A DNA stretch of 64,000 nucleotides from an uncultured Clostridia bacterium (GTDB taxonomy: Bacteria > Acidobacteriota > Aminicenantia > UBA2199). The stretch spans positions 73,438 through 137,437 of the forward strand of contig CAZCVI010000009.1 of assembly GCA_964502145.1 (NCBI GenBank), in the 5' to 3' direction. The translations under genes were made by a program, and so were the position numbers. The notes below the pieces were generated by a model. The model ran no database searches. It saw only the letters and a list, made by a program, of their open reading frames with translations, and was not told where the DNA came from. Positions 5,179 through 57,059 of this stretch are shown in pieces; position 1 is the stretch's first letter; each line of letters opens with the position of its first letter.

Positions 5179-5210
5179 AGGTGAATTCACTGGACTATCT
5201 GGACAAACTC
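5179..5210. repeat. Partial copy of the TGGAC 9-nt-period repeat family (GGTGAATTCA + CTGGACTAT CTGGACAAA)
   Basis: Two CTGGACNNN units preceded by GGTGAATTCA, which matches the 'tail' of the full elements at 10952, 16789 and 36372. Confidence 0.4.
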
Positions 5211-5270: not shown

Positions 5271-6488
5271 ATGACGCAATTTATAAATTATACAGACGAC
5301 CAGCTAAAGTCGCTATTAGATGATCTCGAAGCAGACAATGCGGAGCGTAAAGAGAGTTGGAGCGACGATGCCAAGGACAAAGGCCGACAGGCGGTGTGTG
5401 CTTTTGCCAATGATCTTCCCAATTACCAAAAACCGGGAGTCCTTTTTGTAGGTGCCAAGGATGATGGCACTCCTTCAGGTTTAGAGATCAGCGATAAATT
5501 ATTACAGACTTTGGCGGATATCAAAACCGACGGACAGACTTTACCACCACCCACTATTATCGTTCAAAAACGGAAACTAAAAAACAAGGACATGGCCGTG
5601 GTGTTTGTGCTACCTGCTGATACTCCACCCGTTCGTTACAAGGGTAGAGTCTGGATTCGCACAGGTCCCAGGCGTGGCATTGCTACCGCACAGGATGAGC
5701 GTATTTTAAATGAAAAGAGACGATTTAAGGATAAATATTTCGATAGTGCGACAGTGCCAGGAACATCCCTCTATGACCTGAACCGCTTGCAATTCGAACA
5801 GGAATTTCTCCCCAATGCTTTTGCAGTGGATATTTTGGAAGCAAACCAACGCTCTTACGAGGAACGACTGGCATCACTTAAAATGATTGAATCTGTGGAT
5901 AATCCCATACCTACGATATTGGGTTTATTGGTAATCGGGAATAGACCACGTGATTTTCTTCCAAGTGCATATGTGCAATTTTTAAGAATTAATGGCGTGG
6001 GATTGGCTGACCCGATCGTCGATTCTGAAGAGATTGATGGAACAATAGGGCAAATCATCAGGAAGCTTGACGAAAAAATGACCTCACATAATCGTATTGC
6101 CGTGGACATCACTTCCGCCTCCCTGGAACGAAGAAATGCAGACTATCCACTCGTTGCCCTGCAACAACTGACACGAAACGCCTTAATGCATCGTACCTTT
6201 GAGGGCACAAATGCTCCAGTCAGGGTATATTGGTTTAATGACCGCATCGAAATATTCAATCCCGGTGGCCCATACGGAGAAGTAACGGCTGAAAATTTTG
6301 GGCACCCGGGAATAACCGACTATCGCAATCGAAACTTGGCCGACGCCATGAAAGTATCCGGTTTTGTGCAACGATTTGGCGTGGGTATTTCTATCGCTAA
6401 TAGAGAGCTGGAGAAGAACGGTAATCCCCCCTTCAGTTTCGATATTCAACCAACGGTTATTCTTATTACTGTAAGGAAGTCAAAATGA
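5271..6488 (+). CDS. AlbA_2 (Schlafen-like putative DNA-binding) + HATPase_c_4 domain protein, the family often annotated 'RecG-like putative transcriptional regulator'
   Basis: N-terminus VCAFANDLPN...GVLFVGAKDDGTPSGL...RYKGRVWIRTGP matches AlbA_2. C-terminus LTRNALMHRTF...IEIFNPGGPYG matches HATPase_c_4. Confidence 0.7.
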   Translation: MTQFINYTDDQLKSLLDDLEADNAERKESWSDDAKDKGRQAVCAFANDLPNYQKPGVLFVGAKDDGTPSGLEISDKLLQTLADIKTDGQTLPPPTIIVQKRKLKNKDMAVVFVLPADTPPVRYKGRVWIRTGPRRGIATAQDERILNEKRRFKDKYFDSATVPGTSLYDLNRLQFEQEFLPNAFAVDILEANQRSYEERLASLKMIESVDNPIPTILGLLVIGNRPRDFLPSAYVQFLRINGVGLADPIVDSEEIDGTIGQIIRKLDEKMTSHNRIAVDITSASLERRNADYPLVALQQLTRNALMHRTFEGTNAPVRVYWFNDRIEIFNPGGPYGEVTAENFGHPGITDYRNRNLADAMKVSGFVQRFGVGISIANRELEKNGNPPFSFDIQPTVILITVRKSK

Positions 6489-10585: not shown

Positions 10586-10951
10586 TATTTTCCTCCTGGA
10601 TTACTTATTTATAGTCGTATTTTCATATTTATTTACATGAATCTCATACCGGTTCACCTTTATTTTGTTCCAGTATGTCTTAAAAAACCGCGTTCCTGCC
10701 AATATTTTTTTAACGCCCGTGTTTTTTTTTAAGGTCAATAGTTGTGGTCACTAAACTATCCAGCAATAAATACCTTGTGAAATATAAATTTCATTGCTGT
10801 AATATAATATAATGATAATTTCTTCTTTTGTCAAGTCTATTGGGATGTTCGTATCAGGCAAACTTCCAGTTCAACCCGTAGTGACAGTGCTTCCAAGAGC
10901 CGATACAGATAATAAAAATAAAAAAATAACATCTCGCCAAAATAACCTAAA

Positions 10952-11106
10952 TCCACCGCCAAATTTCTGAAATCGTTGTGGACGATATGGGCAGAGTGGA
11001 CGACATGGACAATAAAATGCTTTTTATTTTTGCTCCACATCGTCCATATCGTCCACTCTGTCCATATCGTCCATGTTTTTTCACGAATCTGATGGTGAAT
11101 TCAGTT
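10952..11106. repeat. TGGAC 9-nt-period palindromic repeat element (full copy)
   Basis: Leader CACCGCCAAATTTCTGAAATCG. Arm TGGACGATATGGGCAGAGTGGACGACATGGAC, an AT-rich loop, then the inverted arm GTCCATATCGTCCACTCTGTCCATATCGTCCAT. Tail GATGGTGAATTCAG. Lies between the end of the MBL-fold gene and the region upstream of rho. Confidence 0.7.
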
Positions 11107-11118
11107 ACTACTCTTTTT

Positions 11119-11871
11119 CTATTCTTTTGGGGGTTGGGGGATTCTTAGTTCCGTGGTTTTGTTATCTTTAAACATGGCGATCAAACCAGGGAAATCGGTT
11201 TTGTCCGGGAAGAAGTGGTAGATGTAGAGGATTTTTGGGGAGAACAATTTGGCTGCATCAACAAGCATTTCCGGAGTCATTGTATAGGGCAGGTTCATGG
11301 GTAGAAAAGCGACATCAATGTCTTTTAGTTCCTTCATTTCCGGGATATTTTCCGTATCACCGCCGATGTAGACCCGCTTATTGGCAAAGGTGAGAATATA
11401 CCCGTTCCCCTCGCCTTTCACATGAAAAAGGGTGCCATCTTCCCTTTTATGCACGATATTGTAGGCTGGCACAGCATCAATACCAATTTGAAACACTTCT
11501 TTATGTCCGCCATTGGCGATAATCTCGCCATCAGTTAACTTTGGCGCACAAAGTGTGGTACAGATGATCCGGGTGGTAGAAGTGCGCAGGGGTTCTAAAG
11601 CAATGGGGTCGAGATGATCGCCATGATGGTGGGTAATCAGTATCAAATCCGCCTTGGGTAGTTTCGTATAATCGGCTATTTTTGAGACAGGGTCGATTTG
11701 GATGACCTTGTTATCAAAATTGATCATCAAGGACGCATGACCGATAAAAGTAATCTTCAATGGCCCTTTGGTAGTGTCAAACACGGCAGAGTCAAAAGGC
11801 AATTCCTCCGCCGTTAAATAAAAACAACCGATTAGAAAAAAAAGTATTGTGATAAGATGTTTTACTTTCAT
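11119..11871 (-). CDS. MBL-fold metallo-hydrolase, secreted
   Basis: HHHGDH motif (ITHHHGDHLD). Signal peptide MKVKHLITILFFLIGCF. Start moved to ATG 11871, which has a GGAGG ribosome-binding site. Confidence 0.8.
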   Translation of the reverse strand: MKVKHLITILFFLIGCFYLTAEELPFDSAVFDTTKGPLKITFIGHASLMINFDNKVIQIDPVSKIADYTKLPKADLILITHHHGDHLDPIALEPLRTSTTRIICTTLCAPKLTDGEIIANGGHKEVFQIGIDAVPAYNIVHKREDGTLFHVKGEGNGYILTFANKRVYIGGDTENIPEMKELKDIDVAFLPMNLPYTMTPEMLVDAAKLFSPKILYIYHFFPDKTDFPGLIAMFKDNKTTELRIPQPPKE

Positions 11872-12146
11872 TTTTACCTCCAAGGTAAGTATAGCAAAAA
11901 ATGCAGAGGAATTAAAGACCCTATCACGGTAAGTTTCAAATGGAAGAGGCATGGATGTCCTGTACTTTTTCGGAAGCATTAGTAATCAAAGCGGGTATTT
12001 TCCTGGTGTCTGTTGGTTCGTTTAATGTCATACAAGATATGTCTCCCACGTATATTTCTTGGGTAAGAAAACAGAGCCAAAAGAAAAAAAGCGGATTACA
12101 ATTTTAAAACTGGAATACTAGAAGGGGTGAAAATTGATTTATGGTA

Positions 12147-16745: not shown

Positions 16746-16789
16746 GCGCAGAGTCTCTGTAAAATCAGAGACTCTGCGCTGTTTTTTTT
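16746..16789 (+). terminator. Rho-independent terminator of amtB
   Basis: GCGCAGAGTCTCTG / TAAAAT loop / CAGAGACTCTGCGC, followed by T9. Confidence 0.75.
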
Positions 16790-16900
16790 GTGGACGATAT
16801 GGACAGAGTGGACGACATGGACGATGTGGAACAAAAACAAAAGCATTTATTTGTCCATATCGTCCACACCGATTTTGGATATTTGGCGATGAATCCAGGA
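16789..16900. repeat. TGGAC 9-nt-period palindromic repeat element
   Basis: TGGACGATATGGACAGAGTGGACGACATGGACGATGTGGAAC, loop, GTCCATATCGTCCAC. This is followed by an inverted copy of the leader (CGATTTTGGATATTTGGCG) and the tail GATGAATCCAGG. Confidence 0.7.
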
Positions 16901-17973: not shown

Positions 17974-18582
17974 ATGAGCTACCAATACGATGTCTTTTTA
18001 AGTTACAACCGAAAGTTCCCCCACGGTCAGTGGGTAGATGAGATTTTTTATCCATTGTTTGTTCCCTACCTGGAAGATGCCCTGAATCAAAAAGTATTGA
18101 TATTCAAAGACACCGAAGAGATTAATACCGGTTCTGCTTGGCCCCATAGATTAAAGAATGCAGCCGTCCATTCGAAATGTATGGTATCCATTTTTTCGCC
18201 CGCTTATTTTCTTTCGGAATGGTGCATGAAAGAATTTGCCATCATGTTTTACCGGCAAAAGCAATTGGGATATTTAACACAAAAAAACCCTGATGGATTG
18301 ATTGTTCCCGTTAAAATCTTCGATGGTGAGCATTTCCCTGAGTATGCAAATTTTTTGCAGATGTTAGATTGTCGGGATTTATTTCTTGTCGGCGAGGGAA
18401 TGAAGCAGGCAAAATCTTATATGGATTTGCAAACACGCTTACAGAGATGGGTCTACAATGTAGCTAAAGTTATAAAAAACGCCCCGGAATGGGACAACCA
18501 ATGGCTGGAGAAGCATTGGTTGGAACCACTGGCGGCTAAAAAAAACTGGGCAGCAATACAAGAGGAGAAACCAATCCTATGA
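17974..18582 (+). CDS. Stand-alone TIR-domain protein (ThsB-like)
   Basis: YDVFLSYNR start. Conserved S-x-WC-x-x-E region SPAYFLSEWCMKEF, with the Glu in the position of the TIR NADase catalytic residue. Confidence 0.8.
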   Translation: MSYQYDVFLSYNRKFPHGQWVDEIFYPLFVPYLEDALNQKVLIFKDTEEINTGSAWPHRLKNAAVHSKCMVSIFSPAYFLSEWCMKEFAIMFYRQKQLGYLTQKNPDGLIVPVKIFDGEHFPEYANFLQMLDCRDLFLVGEGMKQAKSYMDLQTRLQRWVYNVAKVIKNAPEWDNQWLEKHWLEPLAAKKNWAAIQEEKPIL

Positions 18583-21295: not shown

Positions 21296-21383
21296 TTGCC
21301 CACGAATTACACGAATGATCACGAATTTATCGGAAAAAAAACGTTTATTTCCTTTTAATTCGTGACAATTCGTGGAATTCGGT
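21296..21383. repeat. Palindromic element built from CACGAATNN sub-repeats
   Basis: CCCACGAATTACACGAATGATCACGAATT, loop, AATTCGTGACAATTCGTGGAATTCGG. Confidence 0.6.
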
Positions 21384-21960: not shown

Positions 21961-22553
21961 CACTGTCGAGATGGACACTATACCGTGAAGCCAAGCAGGA
22001 AAGTTAACGGAGGAGCAGATACTCCGATTTTTTTGACGTACCTGTGACCGAAGTGACCGCTTTTCTGAGCGCGCAACTGGCAGAAGGAAATCCTTTTTAT
22101 GTCAGTTCTATCTTATGTTCCCAATTCCCAGACAAAGATTTAACCACTTTGGAAGGATTGGTGCGCACCCTGGAATTTGAAACCTTAAACGATAACGGGG
22201 AGATCAAATCTACCTGGATGACTTATGTGAATTCGGCCTTCAACCAAGTTAACAATAAAATTTCCAAGAATATTGTGTTGTATTTATGTAAAAATAGAGA
22301 CCATGAGGTCACCCGCAAAGAGTTATTGGAAAAATTACATCTGGATATGACGGATGGCGAATTAGAGTTCAAACTCAAAGCTCTAATAAAAGCCGATATT
22401 ATCCTCCAAGGAGCGACCAACTACGATTACCACGGGAAGTGGAAGACTTCCTTCGTGAAAAAAGTATCGCCTATACGGAAGATGAACGCTGGTTGGAGCT
22501 TTAAAGGTTTTTTAACCACAGATTACACAGATTCAAATGATTTCCCAGATTAA
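21961..22553 (+). pseudogene. Decayed paralog of the Arch_ATPase/DUF234 gene at 48996-50756: N-terminal P-loop half missing, internal deletion, frameshifts
   Basis: RYSDFFDVPVTEVTAFLSAQLAEGNPFYVSSIL...LYLCKNRDHEVTRKELLEKLHLDMTDGELEFKLKALIKADII aligns with KYSGFFNVPVTEETAYLIAQMAEGSPFYISSIL...LYLCQNRDHEVTRQELLDNLALDMTDRELELKLKALVRADII of the intact gene. After NYDYHG the frame jumps to ...SIAYTEDERWLEL*, which matches the intact C-terminus GIAYSEDERWLEN*. Confidence 0.75.
22516..22552. repeat. Half-copy of the CACAGATTA repeat element
   Basis: CCACAGATTACACAGATTCAAATGATTTCCCAGATTA is nearly identical to the left arm of the palindrome at 50834-50933. Confidence 0.6.
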
Positions 22554-32832: not shown

Positions 32833-34287
32833 CTATTCGGGGTCCTTCATTTTGCTACGCAGGGCGCTACGGGTAAGTCCCAGATATTGGGCGGTTTTTG
32901 TTTTATTGCCGTCAAACCGTTGCAATACCTTTTGCACGATCTCATCCTCCAGAGCTTTAAGATCGAGTTTATCGGGTGGTAATTTGATTTTCCCTGGTTC
33001 CAACACGCAGGTTTCCACCATCATGGGTTCCATCGGGTTATGTCCGGAGCTTAAAAACTGGAGGTGTTCAGGCCGGATTTCGAAATCATCATAGAGCAGA
33101 ATCACGCGTTCGATAGTATTTTGAAGTTGGCGAATATTTCCGGGCCAGGGAAACTGTTCGAGGGTGGTGATGGTCTCGCGGTGCAAGAAGCGGAATTTAC
33201 GGTTCTTTTTTTCTGCATACTTGAAAAGAAACAACTGGGCAAGGGGTGCGATGGCTTCTTTACGTTCGCGTAGGGGCGGCACAAACACGTAACCGACATT
33301 CATGCGATAATAGAGGTCCTCGCGGAAGCGTCCTTCCTTGACTTTTTGGCTCAAGTCCTGGTTGGTGGCGCACACCACACGGATATCAAGGTTGATCTTC
33401 TTTAAGCCACCGACGCGGTAGATGGCTCTTTCTTCAAGTACGCGGAGTAATTTGGGTTGGATTTCCAAGGGTAGATCGCCGATTTCATCTAAAAATATGG
33501 TGCCGCCTTGGGCAAGTTCGAATTTACCGATCGCACCTTTCTTTTTGGCGTCGGTGAATGCGCCTTCCTCGTAGCCGAACAATTCTGTTTCAAAAAGATT
33601 GCCGGGAATAGCGGAGCAGTTGATAGAAATAAAAGGGGTGGTGATATCACCATTGCCATAGTGGATCATGCGGGCTACGACTTCTTTGCCAGTGCCGGTT
33701 TCACCTTCAATGAGTATGGGAATAGCGCGGTCCTGGTGTAGTTTGACCACAAGGTCGCGGATTTCGCGCATCTTGGCCGAATAAATCCCGATGTCTCCCA
33801 GCCCAACGATTTTACTATAGGCGCTCTGGATGCGCTCATATTTTTCGCGTACCTCGGTGGTGGCTTGATAGAGTTTTTGGTCGAAGTGTTTTTTCAGGTC
33901 GGTATTTTCTTTGAGCAGGGAGATATGTTCTTGGACGCGGAGAACTATGGAAGCCAATTCTTCGACATCAATGGGTTTGAGCAAATAATCATAGGCCCCG
34001 GCGCGCATGGCCTGGATGGCAGAATCCATGTTCCCATAACCGGTAATCAATACTATATCGGTAAAGCGACTTTGCGGCAATCCAGTGATATAGCGGGAGA
34101 GTTCGATACCGTTAATGCCGGGCAGACGAATATCAGAAATGACAAGGGGAAAAGGATTGTCCTGATATAATTTTAATGCCTCGCTACCATTATCACAACG
34201 TGTGACATCATGGCCCAACTGGTGGGTTAAAAAACCGTATATGGCTTGCAAACTGAGTTCTTCATCATCAATTAACAAAATTCTCAT
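32833..34287 (-). CDS. Sigma-54-dependent response regulator (NtrC family)
   Basis: Receiver domain plus AAA+ sigma-54 activator core ([14 protein letters not shown]) and C-terminal HTH. Confidence 0.9.
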
Positions 34288-36352
34288 GGCTGGTATCCTT
34301 GGTTACTGGACTAACTGGACCTATAACTGGAGCTTTTTTTGTGTCATGTTTGGGGGGATTATTTTTTGCATAGAGGGGGAATCTTAAGGTGAAGCGGGCG
34401 CCGACGATGTTATCATCGACTTTCTGGTTGGCGGCATGGATTGTACCGTTGTAACGGTCCACATATTGCTTGACAATAGCGAGTCCCAAACCCATGCCCT
34501 CGCCACCACTGTTGGTGGAAAAGAAGGGGTCCCAGAGTTTTTCAATACTTTCATGGGGGAGTCCGGGGCCGTTGTCGCAAATGACCAAGACGACGTGGTC
34601 GTTGTCCATGGACGTAATCAGTTCGATCTTTTTTTGAACCTGTTTTTTTCCTTTTAGGGCATTAGCAGCATTAACCACGATGTTAACAATAATTTGTTCG
34701 AAATGAATCAGGTTCCCCTGTACCATCAAGGGGTTGGTTGAGGTGCTTAAATATTCTTGGATTCCGTGGTCATGGAGTTGCTGGTGAATAAGGGAGAGGG
34801 CATTGGCCACGGCGACATTAATATCTACAGCGACGATGGCAGGAGAATCGGGGACGACCCAGAAGGCGCGCATGTTCTGGATAATTTCCACGATCCGTTT
34901 AACGGATTTAGAGATGAGGTTTAATTGCTCAATAAAGGGTTCGGGGAGTGCGTTGGGGTTTCGTTTTTGCCAGTATTGGATACTGTCAGCGGTCACTTTA
35001 ATAGCATTGAGGGGTTGGTTGATCTCGTGGGTAATACCGGCGGCCATCACGCCGATAGAAGCAAGTCTGGCAGATTGTTCCACTTGTTTGATGGCGGAAA
35101 TCTGTTTTTTTTCCGCTATTTCTCGGGCCTGACACTCTGTTTCCAATGCTTGTTGCGCCAGTTTATGTTCTTCGATTTCGAGGTTTAATTTGCGGTTGGT
35201 TTCGCGAAGTTCAGCGGTGGCTTCATGAACGGTTTCTTCAAGGTGTTTACGATACTGTCGTAACTCGGTTTCGGCGCGTTTGTGAAAGAAAATCATCAAA
35301 AAGGTAACCAGTCCCATAAACACAAGCAGCATAAAAACAATCTTTTTTTTCTGCCGATTCACGGCATTAAAAGTGTTGGAAATGTCTTTCAGTATAAAAA
35401 CACCGCCTACTTTGCGACCCATGGCATCATAAAAGGGAAACACGCCCCGGACAAAGCGTGTGTCCCCCACGGAGATCATGCCCAGCACCAACCCTTCGTC
35501 AGGGATAGTGGATAGATTATCCAGATTCTTTTGCAATAATTCGGTCTGGGAAGCGATACTGGTGGAGGTGACCAGCAGGTGATGGGTCATATCGTCCCAG
35601 TTGTCCCGCGCCCCTTTTACAGTGACCACGGACATCCAGTCAGCGCGATTGAGATATTTTTTTTCGATCAACAAGCCGTATTCGTGCCCGGTTTGTTTCT
35701 TTAAGTGCCTGAAGAGGTATGCCATTTCAACTCCCAGTTCAATATAACCGATGAGTTGAGTTTTGTGGTAAAAGGGATGGACGGCACGTAAGGCCAGGGC
35801 GGTTTTACCCAGTTCGCTACCAGTAGCCAGTTGCCCGGTACTGATACACTTTTGCAAGGTAAACCGCATGTTTTTATCATTGCGGAAGCCAGGGTTATGA
35901 ACGCGTAAAAAACAGGTTTGGTCTGGTTCGGGAGTAATAAAATACCAGTGGGTAATCCCATTTTGTAACTTGAGATGTTGATAGATAGGCCGGGTGAATT
36001 GATACAACTGCTCGCCATCCCGCATATAAAACAACTCGCCAATAGTCTGATTGGACACCAAACCTTCCAAAGTAGCGGACAACATGTTAACGGTGTTCCG
36101 TTCAAGTTCTTTAAATGCGACGGCGGAATTTTCGATGGTGTTCCGGGTCATAAAATCGACGTTGCTGGTATTGGATATGTTAAATATAATTAAAACACCG
36201 GTAACGCTTATGCCTGCAAGACCAAGAATAAAAAAAATGGCCCGGTAAACAAAAACGAAACGCCTGAGCTTCTTATTACGACTTGTATTATACGTTTCCT
36301 CTATTAAACTTTTCACGCTATATATAATAAGGAAACGGACGACGATTGTCAA
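34268..36352 (-). CDS. Sensor histidine kinase, cognate to the NtrC-like regulator
   Basis: TM segments, sensing region, coiled coil, H-box HEINQPLN, HATPase_c (DNGPGL...GMGLGLAIV). Confidence 0.85.
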   Translation of the reverse strand: MTIVVRFLIIYSVKSLIEETYNTSRNKKLRRFVFVYRAIFFILGLAGISVTGVLIIFNISNTSNVDFMTRNTIENSAVAFKELERNTVNMLSATLEGLVSNQTIGELFYMRDGEQLYQFTRPIYQHLKLQNGITHWYFITPEPDQTCFLRVHNPGFRNDKNMRFTLQKCISTGQLATGSELGKTALALRAVHPFYHKTQLIGYIELGVEMAYLFRHLKKQTGHEYGLLIEKKYLNRADWMSVVTVKGARDNWDDMTHHLLVTSTSIASQTELLQKNLDNLSTIPDEGLVLGMISVGDTRFVRGVFPFYDAMGRKVGGVFILKDISNTFNAVNRQKKKIVFMLLVFMGLVTFLMIFFHKRAETELRQYRKHLEETVHEATAELRETNRKLNLEIEEHKLAQQALETECQAREIAEKKQISAIKQVEQSARLASIGVMAAGITHEINQPLNAIKVTADSIQYWQKRNPNALPEPFIEQLNLISKSVKRIVEIIQNMRAFWVVPDSPAIVAVDINVAVANALSLIHQQLHDHGIQEYLSTSTNPLMVQGNLIHFEQIIVNIVVNAANALKGKKQVQKKIELITSMDNDHVVLVICDNGPGLPHESIEKLWDPFFSTNSGGEGMGLGLAIVKQYVDRYNGTIHAANQKVDDNIVGARFTLRFPLYAKNNPPKHDTKKAPVIGPVSPVTKDTSHENFVN

Positions 36353-36371
36353 CCTTTTTTCTTAACCTAAA

Positions 36372-36530
36372 TTCACCGCCAAGTTTCAGAAAAAACTGGA
36401 CTATCTGGACATACTGGACATTCTGGACTTACTGGACTTCACAAAAGCTTTGATTTTTCCAGCTTGTCCAGTATGTCCAGCGTGCCACGGTTATCTGTGG
36501 CTCTTTTAAAAATGATGGTGAATCCAGGTT
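36372..36530. repeat. TGGAC 9-nt-period palindromic repeat element
   Basis: Leader ATTCACCGCCAAGTTTCAGAAA. Five CTGGACNNN units, a loop, then GTCCAGTATGTCCAG. Tail GATGGTGAATCCAGG. Confidence 0.7.
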
Positions 36531-36626
36531 AACTGGGGGAAAAATAGCGGGTGGGCCACATGACCGACCCCGCCATCCACGCTATTCATGAATCAGTCTA
36601 ACCCAAGACCTCACCTTCCCCCCTAT

Positions 36627-36862: not shown

Positions 36863-37021
36863 CAGAAAATTACTCAATCAATTGAGAAAATTACTGTTAT
36901 GTTCGAGAATTTTTCAATAATATTACAGTAATTTTCTATTATATTTGAGAAAATTACTTGAATCACAAAGTAAATTACTGAATCATTCGAGTTATTTTCT
37001 TACTGATTTGAGAAAATTACT
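36863..37021. repeat. ~60-bp tandem repeat array with conserved core TTGAGAAAATTACT (three to four copies)
   Basis: Cores at 36882, 36944 and 37008, a variant at 36863, and an inverted copy AGTAATTTTCT at ~36929. Spacers share TTCGAG and ATTACT. Confidence 0.6.
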
Positions 37022-37512
37022 GCAACCCTAGCCTTATATCGTCATGGATGACGTGATGGCTGAAAATGGCACGCTTTTTTGTTATTTATGGCATGAATAG
37101 GTCTATTTATCACCGTTATTACTGGCGAATTCAGAAATTTCCGAATCCGTGACCTGCCTACGACAAAATTGCCGATCAATATTCAACTATTTGCTTCTAT
37201 CGCTTAAAAACCACTTTATTCATGCTCTTGCGACCCACCAGGGGCAATGGGCAGCACCAAGATGAAATTATGCCCTAAGTGGGCGAATTTTCCCCAATAA
37301 CGGTCATTCTTCATTTTCTCAGAAATATCACTCTATTTAAATATAAAGCCTTTATTCTCAGCATCTTTTCTCCATTATGAAAGTATGCCATAAAAAGAGC
37401 AGAGGAAAAAGCAAAAGAGCCTCCCTAAATTCACTCCCAATACTTTAAATGACTATTAAACAATATGGGAAGAATGGGAGAGCGGGGGATAGGCAGCGCC
37501 CCAAAGAGCACT

Positions 37513-41070: not shown

Positions 41071-41195
41071 TTTTTCCTCCGATCTTTAGTATTTTATATT
41101 TCTGAAAGGAACTACACCTTTCAATTAATTCAAAAAAAGTTTAGCACATTTTCAAAGGAAATTCAACTGGGAAATTTAAGATGGATGCACAGCCA

Positions 41196-41305
41196 ACTTC
41201 TTGAAATCGTTATGGACTATATGGACTATATGGACGAAATGGACGTTATGGACGAAATGGACGTTCTGGACAAAAGAGGCTATTCGTCCAGATCGTCCAT
41301 ACGGC
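41196..41305. repeat. TGGAC 9-nt-period palindromic repeat element
   Basis: CTTGAAATCGT leader, then ATGGACTAT ATGGACTAT ATGGACGAA ATGGACGTT ATGGACGAA ATGGACGTT CTGGAC, loop, CGTCCAGATCGTCCAT. Lies between the two protease genes. Confidence 0.7.
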
Positions 41306-41306
41306 T

Positions 41307-44300
41307 TTAAAATTTAGGGACTATGTTTATTACTACACTCACTTTCTGCGGCTGACCATCGGCCCCCTGGCGGGCAAACATTAGGGTGTACTTACCTAAA
41401 AAGCCAGGGCCGGGCTGCCAGTAAAAGATGCCTTTATCTCTATCCACGGTAGAACCGACGGGCAAAGGAGAAATCGCCTCCACCGGACCCTGGCTCCGCA
41501 AACGTATTTCTACCCGTTCGTCCTCTTTGATCTCTAACGCGAAAACACCATCAGACGCAGGGAGAATCTCTTGGGGTTCAACATCCTCGCGGTAACCGCG
41601 TAACAGACCGATGGCAACGGTGGTATCTTTCTGCAATTCACGATGACTGGCACTGAAATCCAACGTGGCGGAAGTTTCTGCGTGGCGGCTACTGGCATTA
41701 TAAATCGAGAAATAGCGACTGCCGATTCCATCCGTATTACCAGCGGTGTCTTTGGCTGTCCACTGGATAGTGTGAATGCCATTGGCATAGGTGGTGGTAT
41801 TGAGGGTACGATACCCGACAGCACCATTACTGTTGGCATAACCGGGGAAAAGTGTCGCAATATCAGAGCGATACAAATTATAAATGGGATGTCCGAGATT
41901 CACGCCATCTACCCAGACATCAATCGTGCTGCCATTGGTTGCAATCGAATTGGGCTGCGGGGTTAATACCCAGCCCCAGTTCAGAAAACTTGAACCTGAA
42001 GCCGAACCACCCTGTAGCGGCGTATCAATGGCGCCAAAAGGTTTGACTGCACTGCTGTTGGCCACGGTAATAGTTTTGAAACCCAGGGAGAGTTGATGGC
42101 CCTCGGCATCGGTAGCAATGGCATATAAGGTATACTCACCATTCCCACCACCGGGTAAGAAATTTGTCAAAAGCATGTACCCCCACCCGGCCTGGTAATT
42201 TTTAGGGAAACCAGGATAAGCGCCTTCCACATCGGGTCGAGCGCCTTCAACAAATACGGCATCGCCAATGTAAGCGGCTCCATTGTATATTTTCACGCTG
42301 ACCACTTCAATATCATCCAATACCCAGCCGGTCACCGGAATGCTGCCCATGGCAATAGTGCCGTTTACCGGGGTGGAAAATTCACCGAAGGGCTGGGTTG
42401 TAGTTCCTGAATTAATCATGGTCAGGTTAACGGTGATGGTTTGCGGGGAATTGGTAGCCCCGTTCGCACTAACAGTGATAGTGCCGACATCCATCCCAGC
42501 GGAGAGGACAGTAGGAACAACGGAAACAGAAAGTATCCCGGACTGGGTCCCAGACGCGGGACTGACGTGCAACCAGGATGCATTGGAACTAGCGCTCCAC
42601 GTCAATGTACCACCACCACTGTTGCCGATTAATACAGTTTGCGTGGAAGTTTTTGCGCCACCTGTATCCGCACCAAAATAAAGCTGGGTGCGGTCCAGTT
42701 TAATTTTAGATGGAGTTGGAGAGCTGGAAGAGATAGTGAAAACACTATTGGAACTATCAACGGGACTGCCATCGGAGGCTTCACTAACCCTTACTTTGCA
42801 AGTAGTAGACGTGGTGGAAGGCAGGGTCCAAGAATGGGAACCATCATTGGCGGTAGCTGCGATTATTGGGGTCCAACTACTGCTGTTATTAATGGAGTAT
42901 TCGATTTTTATATTGCCCACTGAGCCAGTAGTGCTCCAGGTAATGTTATGGGTAGAACTTGTGAGCCAATTTTCACCACCATTGGGAGAGGTCACGGTAA
43001 TAGTTGGGGAAGAAGAAGTGGTGATGGTAAAAGCAGCATTGGAAGAATCAGTAGGACTGCTATCGGCTGCTTCGCTGATCCGTACTTTACAAGTCGCGGA
43101 AGCAGCATTGGGGACAGTCCAGGAATAGGAACCGTCATTGCCTGTGGTATTGATTGCCGTGGTCCAATTACTGCCATTATTCGTGGTGTATTCAATTTTT
43201 ACATCTCCCACGGTGCCGCTAGTACTCCAAGTAATGTATTGGGTGGAACCCACTGCCCAACTTTCACCACCATTGGGAGAGGTCACGGTGATAGTTGGAG
43301 TAGGAGTACTGCCCGATACCCTAAAATTAGCCACGGTGGAGGCGGTATTGTTTAAAGCCCGGCGATTATCTGCGGCCAAGGGGTCGGAATATAATACACC
43401 CATGGGTTGTCCCCCATAGGTTTTATCTGGGTTTGACCAATAATTCACACGGGTACAACCCGGAGTAGCGCAATTGTAAGCCATAATCGTGCGGAATGCT
43501 TTATCTGGGGCTTGGTAGCCATACGCATAAGAATAAGCGCCCTGACCACCCCCGGTATTGGCACGGTCATGATGACAGCCCATGTTATGGCCCAACTCGT
43601 GGGCAAAAGAGTAATACCCCGTGGCACAGGTCAAAGATACCAGTGCAAATGCATCGGAGGCAAAAGAGGTGCTCACGGTAGTCATTAGGTACGCTAATCC
43701 GCAATAGCCGGTGTCATTGACCAGCAACACGACCTCGTCAGCAACGTAGGTATTACGCAAAGTATGAACTTCATCCATATACCCGTCCGCTGTGCCTTGC
43801 AGTCTATCCAGAGTGGCGCTCCAGTTAAAACTGGTTTCGCTGTAATCGACTTCTGCCGAATGGACCAGCCTGATCCGTTGGGAGACGCCGCTGTTGCTGT
43901 ATCCCGCATTGGATTCGGTAACTGCCAGGGTGATCAAGGTTTGCATGGCGCTGGTGCCACCCGCCGCAGCACGGGCCGCTTGGTCATACACTACCAGCAC
44001 GTCAATAGTGTCGCCACTGTCCGCCACCACGCCGTCTAGAACTGGCTCTTTTGTAACCATGGCCAAGGTTTGATGGTTGATTTTTTCCGTGTCTGTTAGC
44101 GCGCACGATGGAAATTTGGAGTGATCTATTTCGTGGATAGCATGAATACCATCGCTGATATACCGGATCTCATAAAAGGCATCAGGCAAAGAAATATTTC
44201 CCGACATAATACCATCTTTATAGACCAGGATCACTTGGCCATAATTTATTCCGTCAATAGTTCCAATCCATGAGAAACGGCCCCCATCATCAATTTCCAA

Positions 44301-44597
44301 ACGTTGGAGCATAGCCCGGTAATACACACCGCCGAATAAATTTAATTCCAAAGTATTGCCTAGATCGGCTTTTTTATCAGTCTCGGCAGGTAATAAGTTG
44401 AAATCCACGGTTACAAAGCGGGTGCGTATAATAGTTGGCACCAGAAACCGTTGGGGATCACCCTGGAATATTGTATCCGCAAAAAGGTCCTGTGGTTCTT
44501 GCACTGCCAAGAGCGGTGTACTCATTCCTATTATCTGCAAGAATAACAGACCTATTAATACAGCTACCAGTACCTTTATCTTTGATATTTTTCTCAT
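41307..44597 (-). CDS. Secreted zinc metalloprotease (metzincin, HExxHxxGxxH) with Ig-like repeats and the same C-terminal module as the S8 protease
   Basis: HELGHNMGCHHD zinc-binding motif. Signal peptide MRKISKIKVLVAVLIGLLF. The C-terminal ~400 aa are nearly colinear and highly identical to those of the 37561-41070 product (for example PFGEF.TP..G...GSIPVTGW.LDDIEVVSVKIYNG). Confidence 0.8.
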   Translation of the reverse strand: MRKISKIKVLVAVLIGLLFLQIIGMSTPLLAVQEPQDLFADTIFQGDPQRFLVPTIIRTRFVTVDFNLLPAETDKKADLGNTLELNLFGGVYYRAMLQRLEIDDGGRFSWIGTIDGINYGQVILVYKDGIMSGNISLPDAFYEIRYISDGIHAIHEIDHSKFPSCALTDTEKINHQTLAMVTKEPVLDGVVADSGDTIDVLVVYDQAARAAAGGTSAMQTLITLAVTESNAGYSNSGVSQRIRLVHSAEVDYSETSFNWSATLDRLQGTADGYMDEVHTLRNTYVADEVVLLVNDTGYCGLAYLMTTVSTSFASDAFALVSLTCATGYYSFAHELGHNMGCHHDRANTGGGQGAYSYAYGYQAPDKAFRTIMAYNCATPGCTRVNYWSNPDKTYGGQPMGVLYSDPLAADNRRALNNTASTVANFRVSGSTPTPTITVTSPNGGESWAVGSTQYITWSTSGTVGDVKIEYTTNNGSNWTTAINTTGNDGSYSWTVPNAASATCKVRISEAADSSPTDSSNAAFTITTSSSPTITVTSPNGGENWLTSSTHNITWSTTGSVGNIKIEYSINNSSSWTPIIAATANDGSHSWTLPSTTSTTCKVRVSEASDGSPVDSSNSVFTISSSSPTPSKIKLDRTQLYFGADTGGAKTSTQTVLIGNSGGGTLTWSASSNASWLHVSPASGTQSGILSVSVVPTVLSAGMDVGTITVSANGATNSPQTITVNLTMINSGTTTQPFGEFSTPVNGTIAMGSIPVTGWVLDDIEVVSVKIYNGAAYIGDAVFVEGARPDVEGAYPGFPKNYQAGWGYMLLTNFLPGGGNGEYTLYAIATDAEGHQLSLGFKTITVANSSAVKPFGAIDTPLQGGSASGSSFLNWGWVLTPQPNSIATNGSTIDVWVDGVNLGHPIYNLYRSDIATLFPGYANSNGAVGYRTLNTTTYANGIHTIQWTAKDTAGNTDGIGSRYFSIYNASSRHAETSATLDFSASHRELQKDTTVAIGLLRGYREDVEPQEILPASDGVFALEIKEDERVEIRLRSQGPVEAISPLPVGSTVDRDKGIFYWQPGPGFLGKYTLMFARQGADGQPQKVSVVINIVPKF

Positions 44598-47663: not shown

Positions 47664-48755
47664 ATGTCTACTAACAATTCGAACGATAAAAAACAAGGCC
47701 CTGGATACCAGGAGAAGTCCAATCGTATCAGTGTCTGGAGTGAGTTCATACGCTCATTCAGTAAATTTGTTTGGCTGATCGTGGCGATCATTGTACTGGT
47801 TACATTGGGGAAAATCTTTGTCTTTAAATCCGACAAAGGACTCCTGGAACATAAATTCGTCAAGAAACCGGTAGTACAGCGGGTGGATTGGAGCAAAGTC
47901 AATAAAACCATTGCCAAAACTATGACTGAAGCCAGGCTGAGCACGGAACAAATGGCTGCCAGCAAACTGGATCTATGGATTGCTGACAATATGAAACGGG
48001 TAGATGATGATTTCTTAGAATGGTATTTTGGATATTGGACCCAACAGAAACTTGGTTTAAAAAGTTTATTGGCGCAGGTATGGCACTGGGTTGACAGCGA
48101 CAGTCCGACTGCGGCAGAGAAGTTGACCATGGAAGTACAGGAGGAGTTCACCAACCGCGTGATACGTCCGCAAATCGCGCAACTGGAGATTGAGCGTATT
48201 ATCGGTGAGATTGTGGCTCACTACTCTGCTACTTTAAAAGATAAATTGAAAAATATCCCGGTGGAGTATAAAATCAGTCCTGCCGAATGGGACCGGTATA
48301 TTGGCGATATTGCGTTAATAGTTAAGAATGTTGAAGCAAATCGCAGCACGCCGCTAACCTTAAAAGCCATGGTTGGTCTCACTGCGGGTGGTACTATAAT
48401 GGTAGTCAGTACATTGCGGCCCATGATCACCAGGATTGGTGCCCGTATCTCTGCCCGTTTGGCCACAAAAACGGCGGCGCAAATGGCAGCGAAAACAGGG
48501 GGAAAAGTGGCGGCGAAAACAGGGGGAAAGTTCCTGGGTTCTATTATCGCCATCGGTATTATTATATGGGATGTATGGGACCACTACTCGACCAAAGCGA
48601 AAGCACAACCAATTCTAAGACAAAATATCCATGATTATTTGCAAGAAGTGAAACAGTCGATCTTGCACGACCCGAGTTACGGTATTATGACTATTATTTA
48701 CCAGATGGAACAGGGTATTTCAGTTGATGTGAAAACGCAAAATACAGGGACTTGA
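47664..48755 (+). CDS. Hypothetical membrane protein with N-terminal and C-terminal TM segments and an AAKTGGK repeat
   Basis: Start moved to the second ATG (MSTNNSND...), because the first ATG falls inside the predicted 5'UTR. TM helix FVWLIVAIIVLVTLGKIFVF. C-terminal repeat AAKTGGKVAAKTGGK, then LGSIIAIGIIIW. Confidence 0.55.
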   Translation: MSTNNSNDKKQGPGYQEKSNRISVWSEFIRSFSKFVWLIVAIIVLVTLGKIFVFKSDKGLLEHKFVKKPVVQRVDWSKVNKTIAKTMTEARLSTEQMAASKLDLWIADNMKRVDDDFLEWYFGYWTQQKLGLKSLLAQVWHWVDSDSPTAAEKLTMEVQEEFTNRVIRPQIAQLEIERIIGEIVAHYSATLKDKLKNIPVEYKISPAEWDRYIGDIALIVKNVEANRSTPLTLKAMVGLTAGGTIMVVSTLRPMITRIGARISARLATKTAAQMAAKTGGKVAAKTGGKFLGSIIAIGIIIWDVWDHYSTKAKAQPILRQNIHDYLQEVKQSILHDPSYGIMTIIYQMEQGISVDVKTQNTGT

Positions 48756-50833: not shown

Positions 50834-50933
50834 GTCCACAGATTACACAGATTAAAATGATTATCACAGATTTTTTTTTAAAAAACTTTTTTAATCATGT
50901 TAATCCATGGAATCTGTGTAATCTGTGGATATC
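50834..50933. repeat. Palindromic element built from CACAGATTA sub-repeats
   Basis: TCCACAGATTACACAGATTAAAATGATTATCACAGATT, a T/A loop, then AATCATGTTAATCCATGGAATCTGTGTAATCTGTGGA. Confidence 0.65.
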
Positions 50934-56816: not shown

Positions 56817-57059
56817 TCTTAATTAAGACTATTAGAGGAGCAACACCCAAACTCCCCTAATTCCCATAATTCCCCTATTTCCCATCACTCCCAATCCAAC
56901 ATTTAAGGAGGTCATTTTTAAAATTTGACCTCCTAATTTAGGTTTAAGCCGCCCAAAATTGATGTTCACTAGGTGAATTCCTCTTTTTTCAGGTTATTTT
57001 TCATATTTTCAATCCTAATTCTTGACATATTTTTCAAAAAAGATTAATATATAGAATCA

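Follow-up and report, generated by a model that had tools for sequence, protein, structure and literature searches.

Several intergenic spacers of the DNA analysed here (a stretch of 64 kb, referred to throughout as the window) carry long palindromes assembled from 9-nt units, and the question they raise is whether such structures are mobile repeats, sites read by a protein, or hairpins that act in RNA. An interpretation made beforehand from the letters alone (the sequence-only reading) had described five copies of these palindromes, built of 9-nt units between conserved ends and situated in intergenic DNA or at gene 3′ ends. All five were recovered at or near the places reported, the ORF and gene context bears out the positions of every copy, and the TGGAC repeat family is confirmed in the window. 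There are 22 matches to TGGACNNNNTGGAC in the window, compared with 0.07 expected from dinucleotide-preserving shuffles, and not one of 100 shuffles reaches 22. When tandem periods from 4 to 17 were scanned, period 9 yielded seven segments and every other period between none and two; period 18, the double unit, yielded five. Nine, together with its double, is the sole enriched short tandem period in the window, and Tandem Repeats Finder recovers the same nonamer arrays. The total comes to four copies, el1 to el4, and two to three fragments, laid out as follows together with a related element.

el1, 10946-11104, minus strand: complete copy with end modules CCTAAATCCACCGCCAAATTTCTGAAATCGTT and ...GATGGTGAATTCAG; TGGAC arm at 10979-11013, A/T-rich loop, GTCCA arm at 11039-11073; flanked by ATAA (10942-10945) and TTAC (11105-11108).
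el2, 16789-16899, plus strand: copy missing its 5′ end module, the remaining end module being CGATTTTGGATATTTGGCGATGAATCCAGG; TGGAC arm of four to five units, loop, GTCCA arm of two units.
el3, 36366-36528, minus strand: complete copy with end modules CCTAAATTCACCGCCAAG... and ...GATGGTGAATCCAGG; five units of CTGGAC type at 36397-36437, opposite arm at 36458-36480, plus a further small hairpin GCCACAGATAACCGTGGC; TTAA at either flank (36362-36365 and 36529-36532).
el4, 41180-41306, minus strand: copy with a diverged left end module (GATGGATGCACAGCCAACTTCTTGAAATCGTT); seven TGGAC units at 41213-41271 and two GTCCA units at 41286-41299, with period 9 and 6.8 copies; flanked by TTAA (41176-41179 and 41307-41310), the right end being degenerate.
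el0, 5180-5210, plus strand: fragment consisting of GGTGAATTCAC followed by two TGGAC units.
Unnamed fragment, 34307-34330, plus strand: two to three (C)TGGAC units.
Related element, 56841-56990, minus strand: the same tail (GGTGAATTCC at 56972) and a AACCTAAAT motif; its nonamer array is another one, TCCCNTAAT (56841-56895), and it has a hairpin apart from the array, GGAGGTCA...TGACCTCC.

The elements measure 110-160 bp and no ORF of 90 or more amino acids spans any copy, as expected for the size and non-coding nature of a MITE. Both ends are present only in el1 and el3, while el2 and el4 retain one end module each, and the lengths of the two arms can differ strongly, as the seven units versus two of el4 illustrate. 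The surroundings of the copies are alike. el1 lies 14 nt downstream of the stop of a metallo-beta-lactamase-fold gene (11119-11979, minus strand), el3 is located between an S8 protease gene and a histidine kinase gene, both on the minus strand, and the second TTAA of el4 (41307-41310) includes the stop codon of an M12 protease gene (41307-44597, minus strand). el2 begins right at the T-run of the amtB terminator hairpin (16746-16789), a canonical terminator separate from the element. Among the fragments, el0 is situated 20 nt past the stop of a znuB-like ABC-3 permease gene, and the one at 34307-34330 falls within the histidine kinase ORF (34268-36352, minus strand), at its 3′ end. All four copies sit between co-directional genes in one orientation relative to transcription, an arrangement that with n = 4 is suggestive only.

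The ends of the elements bear most directly on how they arrived. When set in the same direction (the minus strand of el1, el3 and el4, and the plus strand of el2, which is homologous to the minus strand of el1), all four copies share a 3′ module, ...AACGATTTCAGAAATTTGGCGGTGRATTTAGG, and el1 and el3 additionally share a 5′ module, CCTGRATTCACCATCA...; the element end sequence is CCTRRATTCACC. Twelve of 16 terminal bases match between CCTAAATYCACCGCCA and CCTGRATTCACCATCA, a match that continues, with imperfections, over about 30 nt of el1 and el3. The two end modules are imperfect inverted copies of each other and therefore constitute terminal inverted repeats, which in el1 and el3, with ends CCTRRATYCACC..., are those expected of a MITE. 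The "leader" and "tail" that had been described as common to the copies are indeed shared modules, although what they really form is this imperfect pair of inverted repeats. TTAA or a one-mismatch variant of it occurs at five of the six element ends that could be scored. A search for target-site duplications, a check proposed with the sequence-only reading, returned a mixed outcome, with one perfect case (TTAA/TTAA around el3), one possible case with a degenerate right end (el4) and one imperfect pair (ATAA/TTAC around el1), only two of the copies being complete. Among the 30 larger ORFs of the 64 kb, a Pfam scan detected neither a transposase nor a RAYT nor any other gene for mobility, and the window yielded no autonomous element whose ends match. 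A composite transposon between paired copies, considered at three loci of other genomes (L130, L168 and L196), was rejected, as just ordinary genes lie between them.

The window sequence is present in several assemblies of one sample series and makes up nearly all of a 64.1-kb contig. The assemblies of the same population differ from one another only by four point substitutions, located at 303-429 and remote from all elements. Short-read contigs break exactly inside the nonamer arrays: two of them (L121 and L122) end in the el2 array and another (L234) at the TCCCNTAAT array of the 56841-56990 element, as is commonly seen where repeats are palindromic or present in many copies. The S8 protease finds its nearest homologues at 56-58% identity, under the labels Acidobacteria or Aminicenantes. 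The two nearest relatives available, 47 kb together, contained no TGGAC arrays, period-9 arrays or end modules, compared with five to six copies in 64 kb here. In one of them the syntenic M12-S8 spacer is 105 nt long and devoid of the element, the relative being distant (56-58% protein identity).

Within each window copy the left and right arms match, as had been claimed, being 89-100% complementary over 17-35 nt: 91% over 35 nt in el1, 100% over 17 nt in el2, 91% over 23 nt in el3, and 89% over 19 nt in el4. Folding each copy, another check proposed earlier, placed el1 and el3 far below their shuffles. The predicted fold of el1 reaches -75 kcal/mol on the plus strand and -90.3 kcal/mol on the minus strand (z of -12 and -14), and that of el3 -66.4 and -73.5 kcal/mol (z of -8 and -9). 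The truncated copies fold moderately below shuffles (z of -5.3 for el2), and el0 has no hairpin of its own (z of +1). In three of the four window copies the sense strand folds better. T-tracts after the stem are irregular, with T6 on the sense strand in el3, a tract on the antisense strand only in el1, and none in el4. Overall, the window copies pair much better than the average of the wider class described below. Such unusually good pairing suggests that the copies are young, and a hairpin role in this genome is possible. Searches against Rfam gave no matches in the window at the gathering threshold and only generic long-hairpin (miRNA precursor) matches at a relaxed threshold, while 18 related loci returned only tRNA or RNase P.

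The core of the palindrome is far more widespread than its ends. A search for TGGACN4TGGACN4TGGAC-N(10-40)-GTCCAN4GTCCA matched at least 106 loci in GTDB species genomes, versus about 0.03 expected by an estimate from database size. Among the matches listed, the carriers belong to Planctomycetota, Verrucomicrobiota, Lentisphaerae, Kiritimatiellae, Chlamydiae, Hydrogenedentota and Sumerlaeota; to Chlorobi, Ignavibacteria, Kapaibacteria, Acidobacteriota and Desulfobacterota; and to Myxococcota, Nitrospirota, Nitrospinota, Cloacimonadota and a few others, Chlorobaculum thiosulfatiphilum DSM 249 and Desulfosarcina widdelii PP31 being isolates among them. A strict polarity of TGGAC first and GTCCA second (114 versus 1 among the GTDB loci listed, mostly a product of ascertainment) is refuted by JGI metagenomes, in which at least 96 of the 120 matches listed for the reverse pattern, with GTCCA arrays first, are genuine palindromes of non-coding appearance; the reverse polarity is equally common in metagenomes. 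Multi-copy families private to one genome have formed around the same core, as in Lentisphaerae AS22 and Acidobacteriota CAM bin14. Flanks are not conserved between phyla; they are conserved within the genome in Lentisphaerae AS22, and in CAM bin14 the repeated unit is the palindrome itself. Other period-9 arrays are not enriched in the loci of other genomes. The end-module (leader) 24-mer, by comparison, has no exact match in GTDB species genomes or JGI metagenomes. The family had been called novel, a description that holds for the end modules but not for the core, with its loci in many phyla and on at least 96 metagenome contigs. No publication on TGGAC nonamer palindromes, or on their presence in the TIGR04258 genes discussed below, was found in a literature search that had most subscription journals outside its reach, and the palindrome is apparently undescribed.

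What is conserved across this class is the motif rather than the pairing. Among the matches listed, the unit logo is R-TGGAC-NNN, and neighboring TGGAC motifs are spaced by 9 nt in 334 pairs versus a handful at 7, 8 or 10 nt. On the TGGAC strand the variable bases are poor in C. Between arms, complementarity at their three positions amounts to 32-39%; in shuffled pairings, the mean across all four spacer positions is about 31%. Reshuffling the variable (N3) bases barely alters the predicted fold (median z of -0.43, with 14% of elements below -2). Sense and antisense strands fold better in 30 and 20 cases, respectively, which is not significant (p = 0.19), and neither is the sense-strand G:U asymmetry. 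Since the variable bases hardly pair and the sense fold is no better, the constraint lies on an inverted array of pentamers and not on a perfectly paired stem or RNA hairpin. The structural or hairpin constraint that had been proposed earlier does not carry over to the class as a whole. The same hexamer variant, ATGGAC or GTGGAC, occupies both arms in 66 of 68 uniform elements among the matches listed; unit-by-unit covariation between the arms of mixed elements is not significant (p = 0.2). The gap between the arrays equals 1 modulo 9 in 30 of 117 elements listed, 2.3 times the expectation, and the arms accordingly tend to share one 9-nt lattice around a TGGAC-N-GTCCA center. In two species of Chlorobiaceae an array stands at the same place upstream of hypC, between flanks diverged beyond alignment, which speaks for selection on the motif; at these orthologous loci both arms have changed jointly from one hexamer variant to the other. 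Resemblance of the units to DnaA boxes (TTWTNCACA) was considered and rejected: T has a frequency of only 0.24 two bases upstream of GTGGAC, the ninth base shows no preference for A, and half of the units are ATGGAC.

Crude gene calls over the loci listed place 48 elements between co-directional, 18 between convergent and 10 between divergent genes, with 17 inside open frames. Where a long frame precedes the element, its stop codon tends to fall 0-60 nt ahead of the first unit, and T-runs follow some copies (el3 on the minus strand, and loci L200 and L202). In-frame copies of the kind known from Rickettsia occur in the class, and in the window only as the small fragment at 34307. A Lon protease (L154) reads its copy as VDxVDx...VHxVHx, and a NACHT/TPR protein (L214) carries another. 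An all-against-all comparison of ORFs over the loci, made to find recurrent neighbors, singled out one family: at nine loci the element lies inside a protein matching TIGR04258 ("four helix bundle suffix domain") and TIGR02436/PF05635. Gfo/Idh/MocA, ABC-F, DnaK and MreB, which are common families, were discarded as specific neighbors, and the four-helix-bundle family alone is specific. Searching with the TIGR04258 protein retrieved at least 8000 homologues, 70-80% identical across phyla. In 97 of the 103 homologues listed, a linker reads (G-[RQPLH]-x)n and then (S-[TIM]-x)n, the peptide that arrays of TGGAC and GTCCAY encode when read in a single fixed frame. The residue after the linker glycine has a C-starting codon in 77% of cases in these homologues, versus 15% in the rest of the protein. 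Two members selected solely on protein similarity hold four TGGAC and four to five GTCCA units in their DNA, and GGA accounts for 9 of their 12 linker glycine codons versus 3 of 20 outside the linker. Extra arrays occur at the borders of the TIGR04258 gene in five of eight evaluable cases, and in three of the loci examined the genes reside within type I or type ISP restriction-modification loci. The window contains no TIGR04258 gene. We take these proteins to be relatives of the DGR accessory protein Avd and of the 23S rRNA intervening-sequence proteins. Conceivably, though we consider it quite unlikely, the TGGAC array would be the recognition platform of TIGR04258 proteins, whose gene, spread by horizontal transfer in restriction-modification and defence islands of more than 10 phyla, would always carry its own in-frame site, with the intergenic palindromes as satellites. 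If so, TIGR04258 and the palindromes would make up a previously unrecognised selfish or regulatory system of protein and nucleic acid. Within a very large and highly conserved gene family the TGGAC core is preserved in the nucleotides themselves, an indication that some partner recognises this sequence specifically.

Taken together, these features are best accommodated by reading the window copies as a non-autonomous selfish palindrome of MITE or REPIN type whose arms are 9-bp iterons for a putative binding protein, a reading to which we assign about even odds (roughly 0.5). A REP- or MITE-like nature was among the possibilities named at the outset, and it emerges as the best reading given the shared end modules, the terminal inverted repeats, the multiple copies and the relatives that lack the element. 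We infer that the elements insert at TTAA-like sites in intergenic DNA, usually just past a stop codon. Their arms are R-TGGAC-NNN iteron arrays in inverted orientation. The arrays would grow and shrink by 9 nt through slipped-strand mispairing, steps that leave reading frames intact for copies within genes. Only the pentamer and its spacing are constant, most likely because a protein reads the array, which may then serve as a platform for a sequence-specific protein acting in trans, be it the transposase or recombinase that mobilises the element or some other protein that binds nucleic acids. A transcribed copy would in addition form a long hairpin, with the stabilisation or termination of upstream mRNAs as a possible by-product. 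The same core is common to private repeat families in many phyla and to the linker of the TIGR04258 gene family.

The main competitor on the RNA side holds that the palindromes are cis-acting elements, 3′ hairpins of mRNA that block 3′ exonucleases or terminate transcription, with the TGGAC units as mere building blocks of the stem. There is precedent for both activities, as REP elements of E. coli block 3′ exonucleases and intrinsic terminators end transcription via hairpins. The folds are very stable (-90 kcal/mol and z of -14 for el1); the four window copies and a fragment are oriented as their flanking co-directional genes, three of the four folding better on the sense strand; most class members begin 0-60 nt past a stop codon, 18 of the loci listed lying between convergent genes; and the T-runs noted above follow el3 and two other loci. 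However, co-orientation in four of four copies is not statistically significant, el2 directly follows amtB's own canonical terminator, and no Rfam family matches. Across the class the sense strand shows no significant advantage (30 versus 20), the variable bases pair no better than chance, and shuffling them leaves the fold intact, while a constraint on pairing alone would not preserve the same pentamer in more than 12 phyla. In-frame copies in genes of essential type, such as Lon, where termination would be harmful, are equally hard to reconcile with it. A structured sRNA or RNA stabiliser, as suggested earlier, is possible but not the best-supported alternative, and we judge a cis-acting RNA role of this kind unlikely. 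Much the same may be said of the proposal that the arrays are maintained by selection as binding sites beneficial to the host, on whose 9-bp iterons a nucleoid-associated, partition-like or regulatory protein would polymerise; by analogy with KfrA or omega/ParG-type operators it merits consideration, and we regard it as improbable to a like degree. It would account well for a motif and spacing that are conserved when pairing is not, for the phase-locked lattice of both arms, and for the existence of both polarities of inverted arrays, as in omega and KfrA sites. The array has persisted at an orthologous site in two species of Chlorobiaceae, its arms having exchanged the hexamer variant jointly, and such persistence is easier to reconcile with a host function than with a selfish copy in decay. 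Against this, the window and its relatives do not have element positions in common, terminal inverted repeats and TTAA flanks are what insertions typically show, in-frame copies in unrelated genes resemble insertions and not operators, and the base preferences of the units are not those of DnaA boxes.

Two further possibilities concern the origin of the repeated letters themselves. Long tandem 9-nt DNA repeats are the products of the defence enzyme DRT10 (bioRxiv 10.1101/2025.10.16.682844), and some genomes contain perfect arrays, such as (GTCCATGAA)10 at locus L129, so that by analogy a telomerase-like reverse transcriptase might have added 9-nt repeats from an RNA template that were subsequently integrated. 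DRT10 products, however, are protein-primed, single-stranded and extrachromosomal, with the motif GAATCATTG and a repeat length that varies among homologues (bioRxiv 10.1101/2025.10.16.682844). That motif is unrelated to the TGGAC unit, most genomic units differ in N3 in a way that a fixed template would not yield, the window encodes no reverse transcriptase, and the inverted second arm is left without explanation. Such an origin is very improbable, and DRT10-type synthesis was set aside as a coincidence of period only. It is scarcely credible, finally, that the arrays are low-complexity sequence arisen by chance or the trace of repeats that encode collagen-like Gly-X-Y (GGA CNN NNT). The former is ruled out by the count of 22 versus 0.07 for TGGACNNNNTGGAC together with the inverted arms. 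The latter does dominate a plain (TGGACN4)x4 search of viral contigs, which is non-specific and swamped by such repeats; viral matches mostly belong either to collagen-like coding sequence or to clusters of TGTGGACAA iterons on small replicons. Of the GTDB palindromic matches inspected, none looked collagen-like, the collagen-like class being confined to viral and metagenome matches, and the window copies are palindromic, intergenic and outside long ORFs.

The selfish palindrome with iteron arms, favored here, matters chiefly for the reach of its core. Interspersed palindromic repeats such as REP, MITE and RPE are normally private to a genus. Here, the private families of PVC bacteria, Hydrogenedentota, Chlorobi, Acidobacteriota, Desulfobacterota and others all retain a single core of 5 bases, spaced at a constant 9 bases. 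It offers a handle on what the four-helix-bundle "suffix" proteins do, on palindromic repeats that live inside genes by virtue of 9-base steps that preserve the frame, and on why short-read assemblies of these phyla break at such places.

Among known systems, the Correia (NEMIS) MITEs of Neisseria are similar in measuring about 100-160 bp, in bearing terminal inverted repeats and short A/T-rich flanking duplications, in their many intergenic copies, in a transcript that folds into a long hairpin, and in encoding no protein. Unlike them, the TGGAC elements have two inverted 9-nt arrays with an invariant pentamer, their core crosses phyla while their ends are genome-specific, and no parent insertion sequence was found. 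REP/BIME sequences and the REPINs mobilised by RAYT likewise are interspersed extragenic palindromes just downstream of genes, in genome-specific families, and REPINs comprise inverted doublets forming hairpins of about 100 nt. The window, by contrast, is without a RAYT gene or a GTAG-type motif, and the TGGAC arm is a tandem nonamer array, not a palindrome itself. Rickettsia palindromic elements (RPE) also sit in frame inside coding genes without destroying them; they are, however, restricted to Rickettsia and lack nonamer periodicity, and the in-frame TGGAC copies are seen in other genomes and not in the window. The heptamer arrays of cyanobacteria (STRR) resemble the present ones as intergenic tandem short units with several flavors per genome, but differ in a period of 7 instead of 9, in the absence of inverted arms and in taxonomic range.

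A second group of parallels comes from protein-linked systems. KfrA of plasmid RA3 binds an operator of five 9-bp repeats, in both orientations, with one protein (PMC7783346), which demonstrates that one protein can read 9-bp arrays in both orientations. The KfrA operator, the omega heptads and the ParG boxes are alike in consisting of contiguous short iterons, direct and inverted, in which the motif matters and not the pairing (PMC7783346). Those are single regulatory sites on plasmids, whereas the TGGAC elements are dispersed in many copies, possess end modules and also occur inside genes. The intervening sequences of 23S rRNA (PF05635 four-helix-bundle) offer a different likeness, that of a protein superfamily tied to insertion-like elements with long inverted-repeat stems, although the TGGAC palindrome is found within the linker of the gene, neither around the gene nor in rRNA. 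Set beside all of these, interspersed palindromic repeats are known as a kind; what is new is that the nonamer core is conserved between phyla and that it occupies a fixed, in-frame position in the genes of a large family.

The TGGAC elements, intergenic palindromes whose arms are made of 9-nt TGGAC units, share the window with a second type of 9-nt-periodic palindrome, built on the unit CACAGATTA and present in two copies, and with a third, built on the unit CACGAATTA:

22517-22552: CACAGATTA copy with one arm, after an ORF whose end is near 22553
50835-50929: full CACAGATTA palindrome, ~95 nt long with a dG of about -42 and a z of about -8, after a 623-aa ORF
21303-21381: CACGAATTA palindrome, immediately 3′ of the gene for the M29 peptidase

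The CACAGATTA palindrome is prolonged by its flanks, AAAGATA...TATCTTT, and neither CACAGATTA copy carries the GGTGAATTC end modules, the imperfect terminal inverted repeats of the TGGAC elements. The CACGAATTA palindrome (z -5 to -6) has arms of 38 nt that are 82% complementary. At 36864-37025, clustered GAGAAAATTACT repeats in direct and inverted orientation together make up a large composite palindrome, with z -6.6 and dG about -48. This cluster lies within the 1 kb that separates the S8 protease gene from the complete TGGAC copy at 36366-36528. The window also contains an unannotated 368-aa ORF with an internal 24-nt tandem repeat, AAAACAGGGCGAAAAGTGGCAGCG, in 2.6 copies (48468-48529).

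Two genes of defence-related appearance lie close to TGGAC elements in the window:

5271-6488: Schlafen/AlbA_2 protein with a RecG-C-like HATPase domain, adjoining the TGGAC fragment at 5180-5210
17974-18582: TIR-domain protein, two genes downstream of the TGGAC copy at 16789-16899

Among other genomes, many of the four-helix-bundle suffix genes (TIGR04258 family) possess an extra TGGAC or GTCCA array in addition to the palindrome in their linker. Such arrays sit just 5′ of the start codon or span the last codons (L414, 10678-10709; L415, 9936-9967; L185, 2551-2573; L173, 5109-5164; L141, 7717-7730), and inverted arrays can therefore bracket the gene. Some genomes harbor very long one-sided arrays, which show that one arm alone is capable of great expansion:

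L125, 1636-1978: 34 units of TGGACRGAA, Chlorobiaceae MAG
L129, 6400-6522: 10 perfect units of GTCCATGAA, Akkermansia MAG
L210, 3659-3762: array of 12 units, Sedimentisphaerales MAG

Across the GTDB loci bearing a TGGAC-nonamer palindrome (L123-L228), the commonest short tandem period after the TGGAC nonamers is 7, represented by 20 segments versus 5-11 for periods 6, 8, 10 and 12, a possible sign that these genomes contain heptamer arrays as well.

In metagenome contigs, a palindrome subfamily with its arms in the order GTCCA then TGGAC recurs (L296, L301, L346, L362, L368, L395 and L411). Its flanks are conserved, with …GTGACAACA… upstream. About 60 nt downstream of the palindrome is a sequence, …GGTTCGAGTCCTCTCGGGCGCA, with the appearance of a 3′ half-gene for a tRNA or tRNA-like RNA. 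Finally, small contigs of viral or plasmid-like character (4-14 kb; L256-L290) form a family with a common origin-like region, exemplified by L260 (1222-1400), L269 and L289, where tandem and inverted sets of TGTCCACA/TGTGGACA nonamers surround a GC-rich spacer. These nonamers are similar to DnaA boxes of the Streptomyces type (TTGTCCACA) or to Rep iterons.
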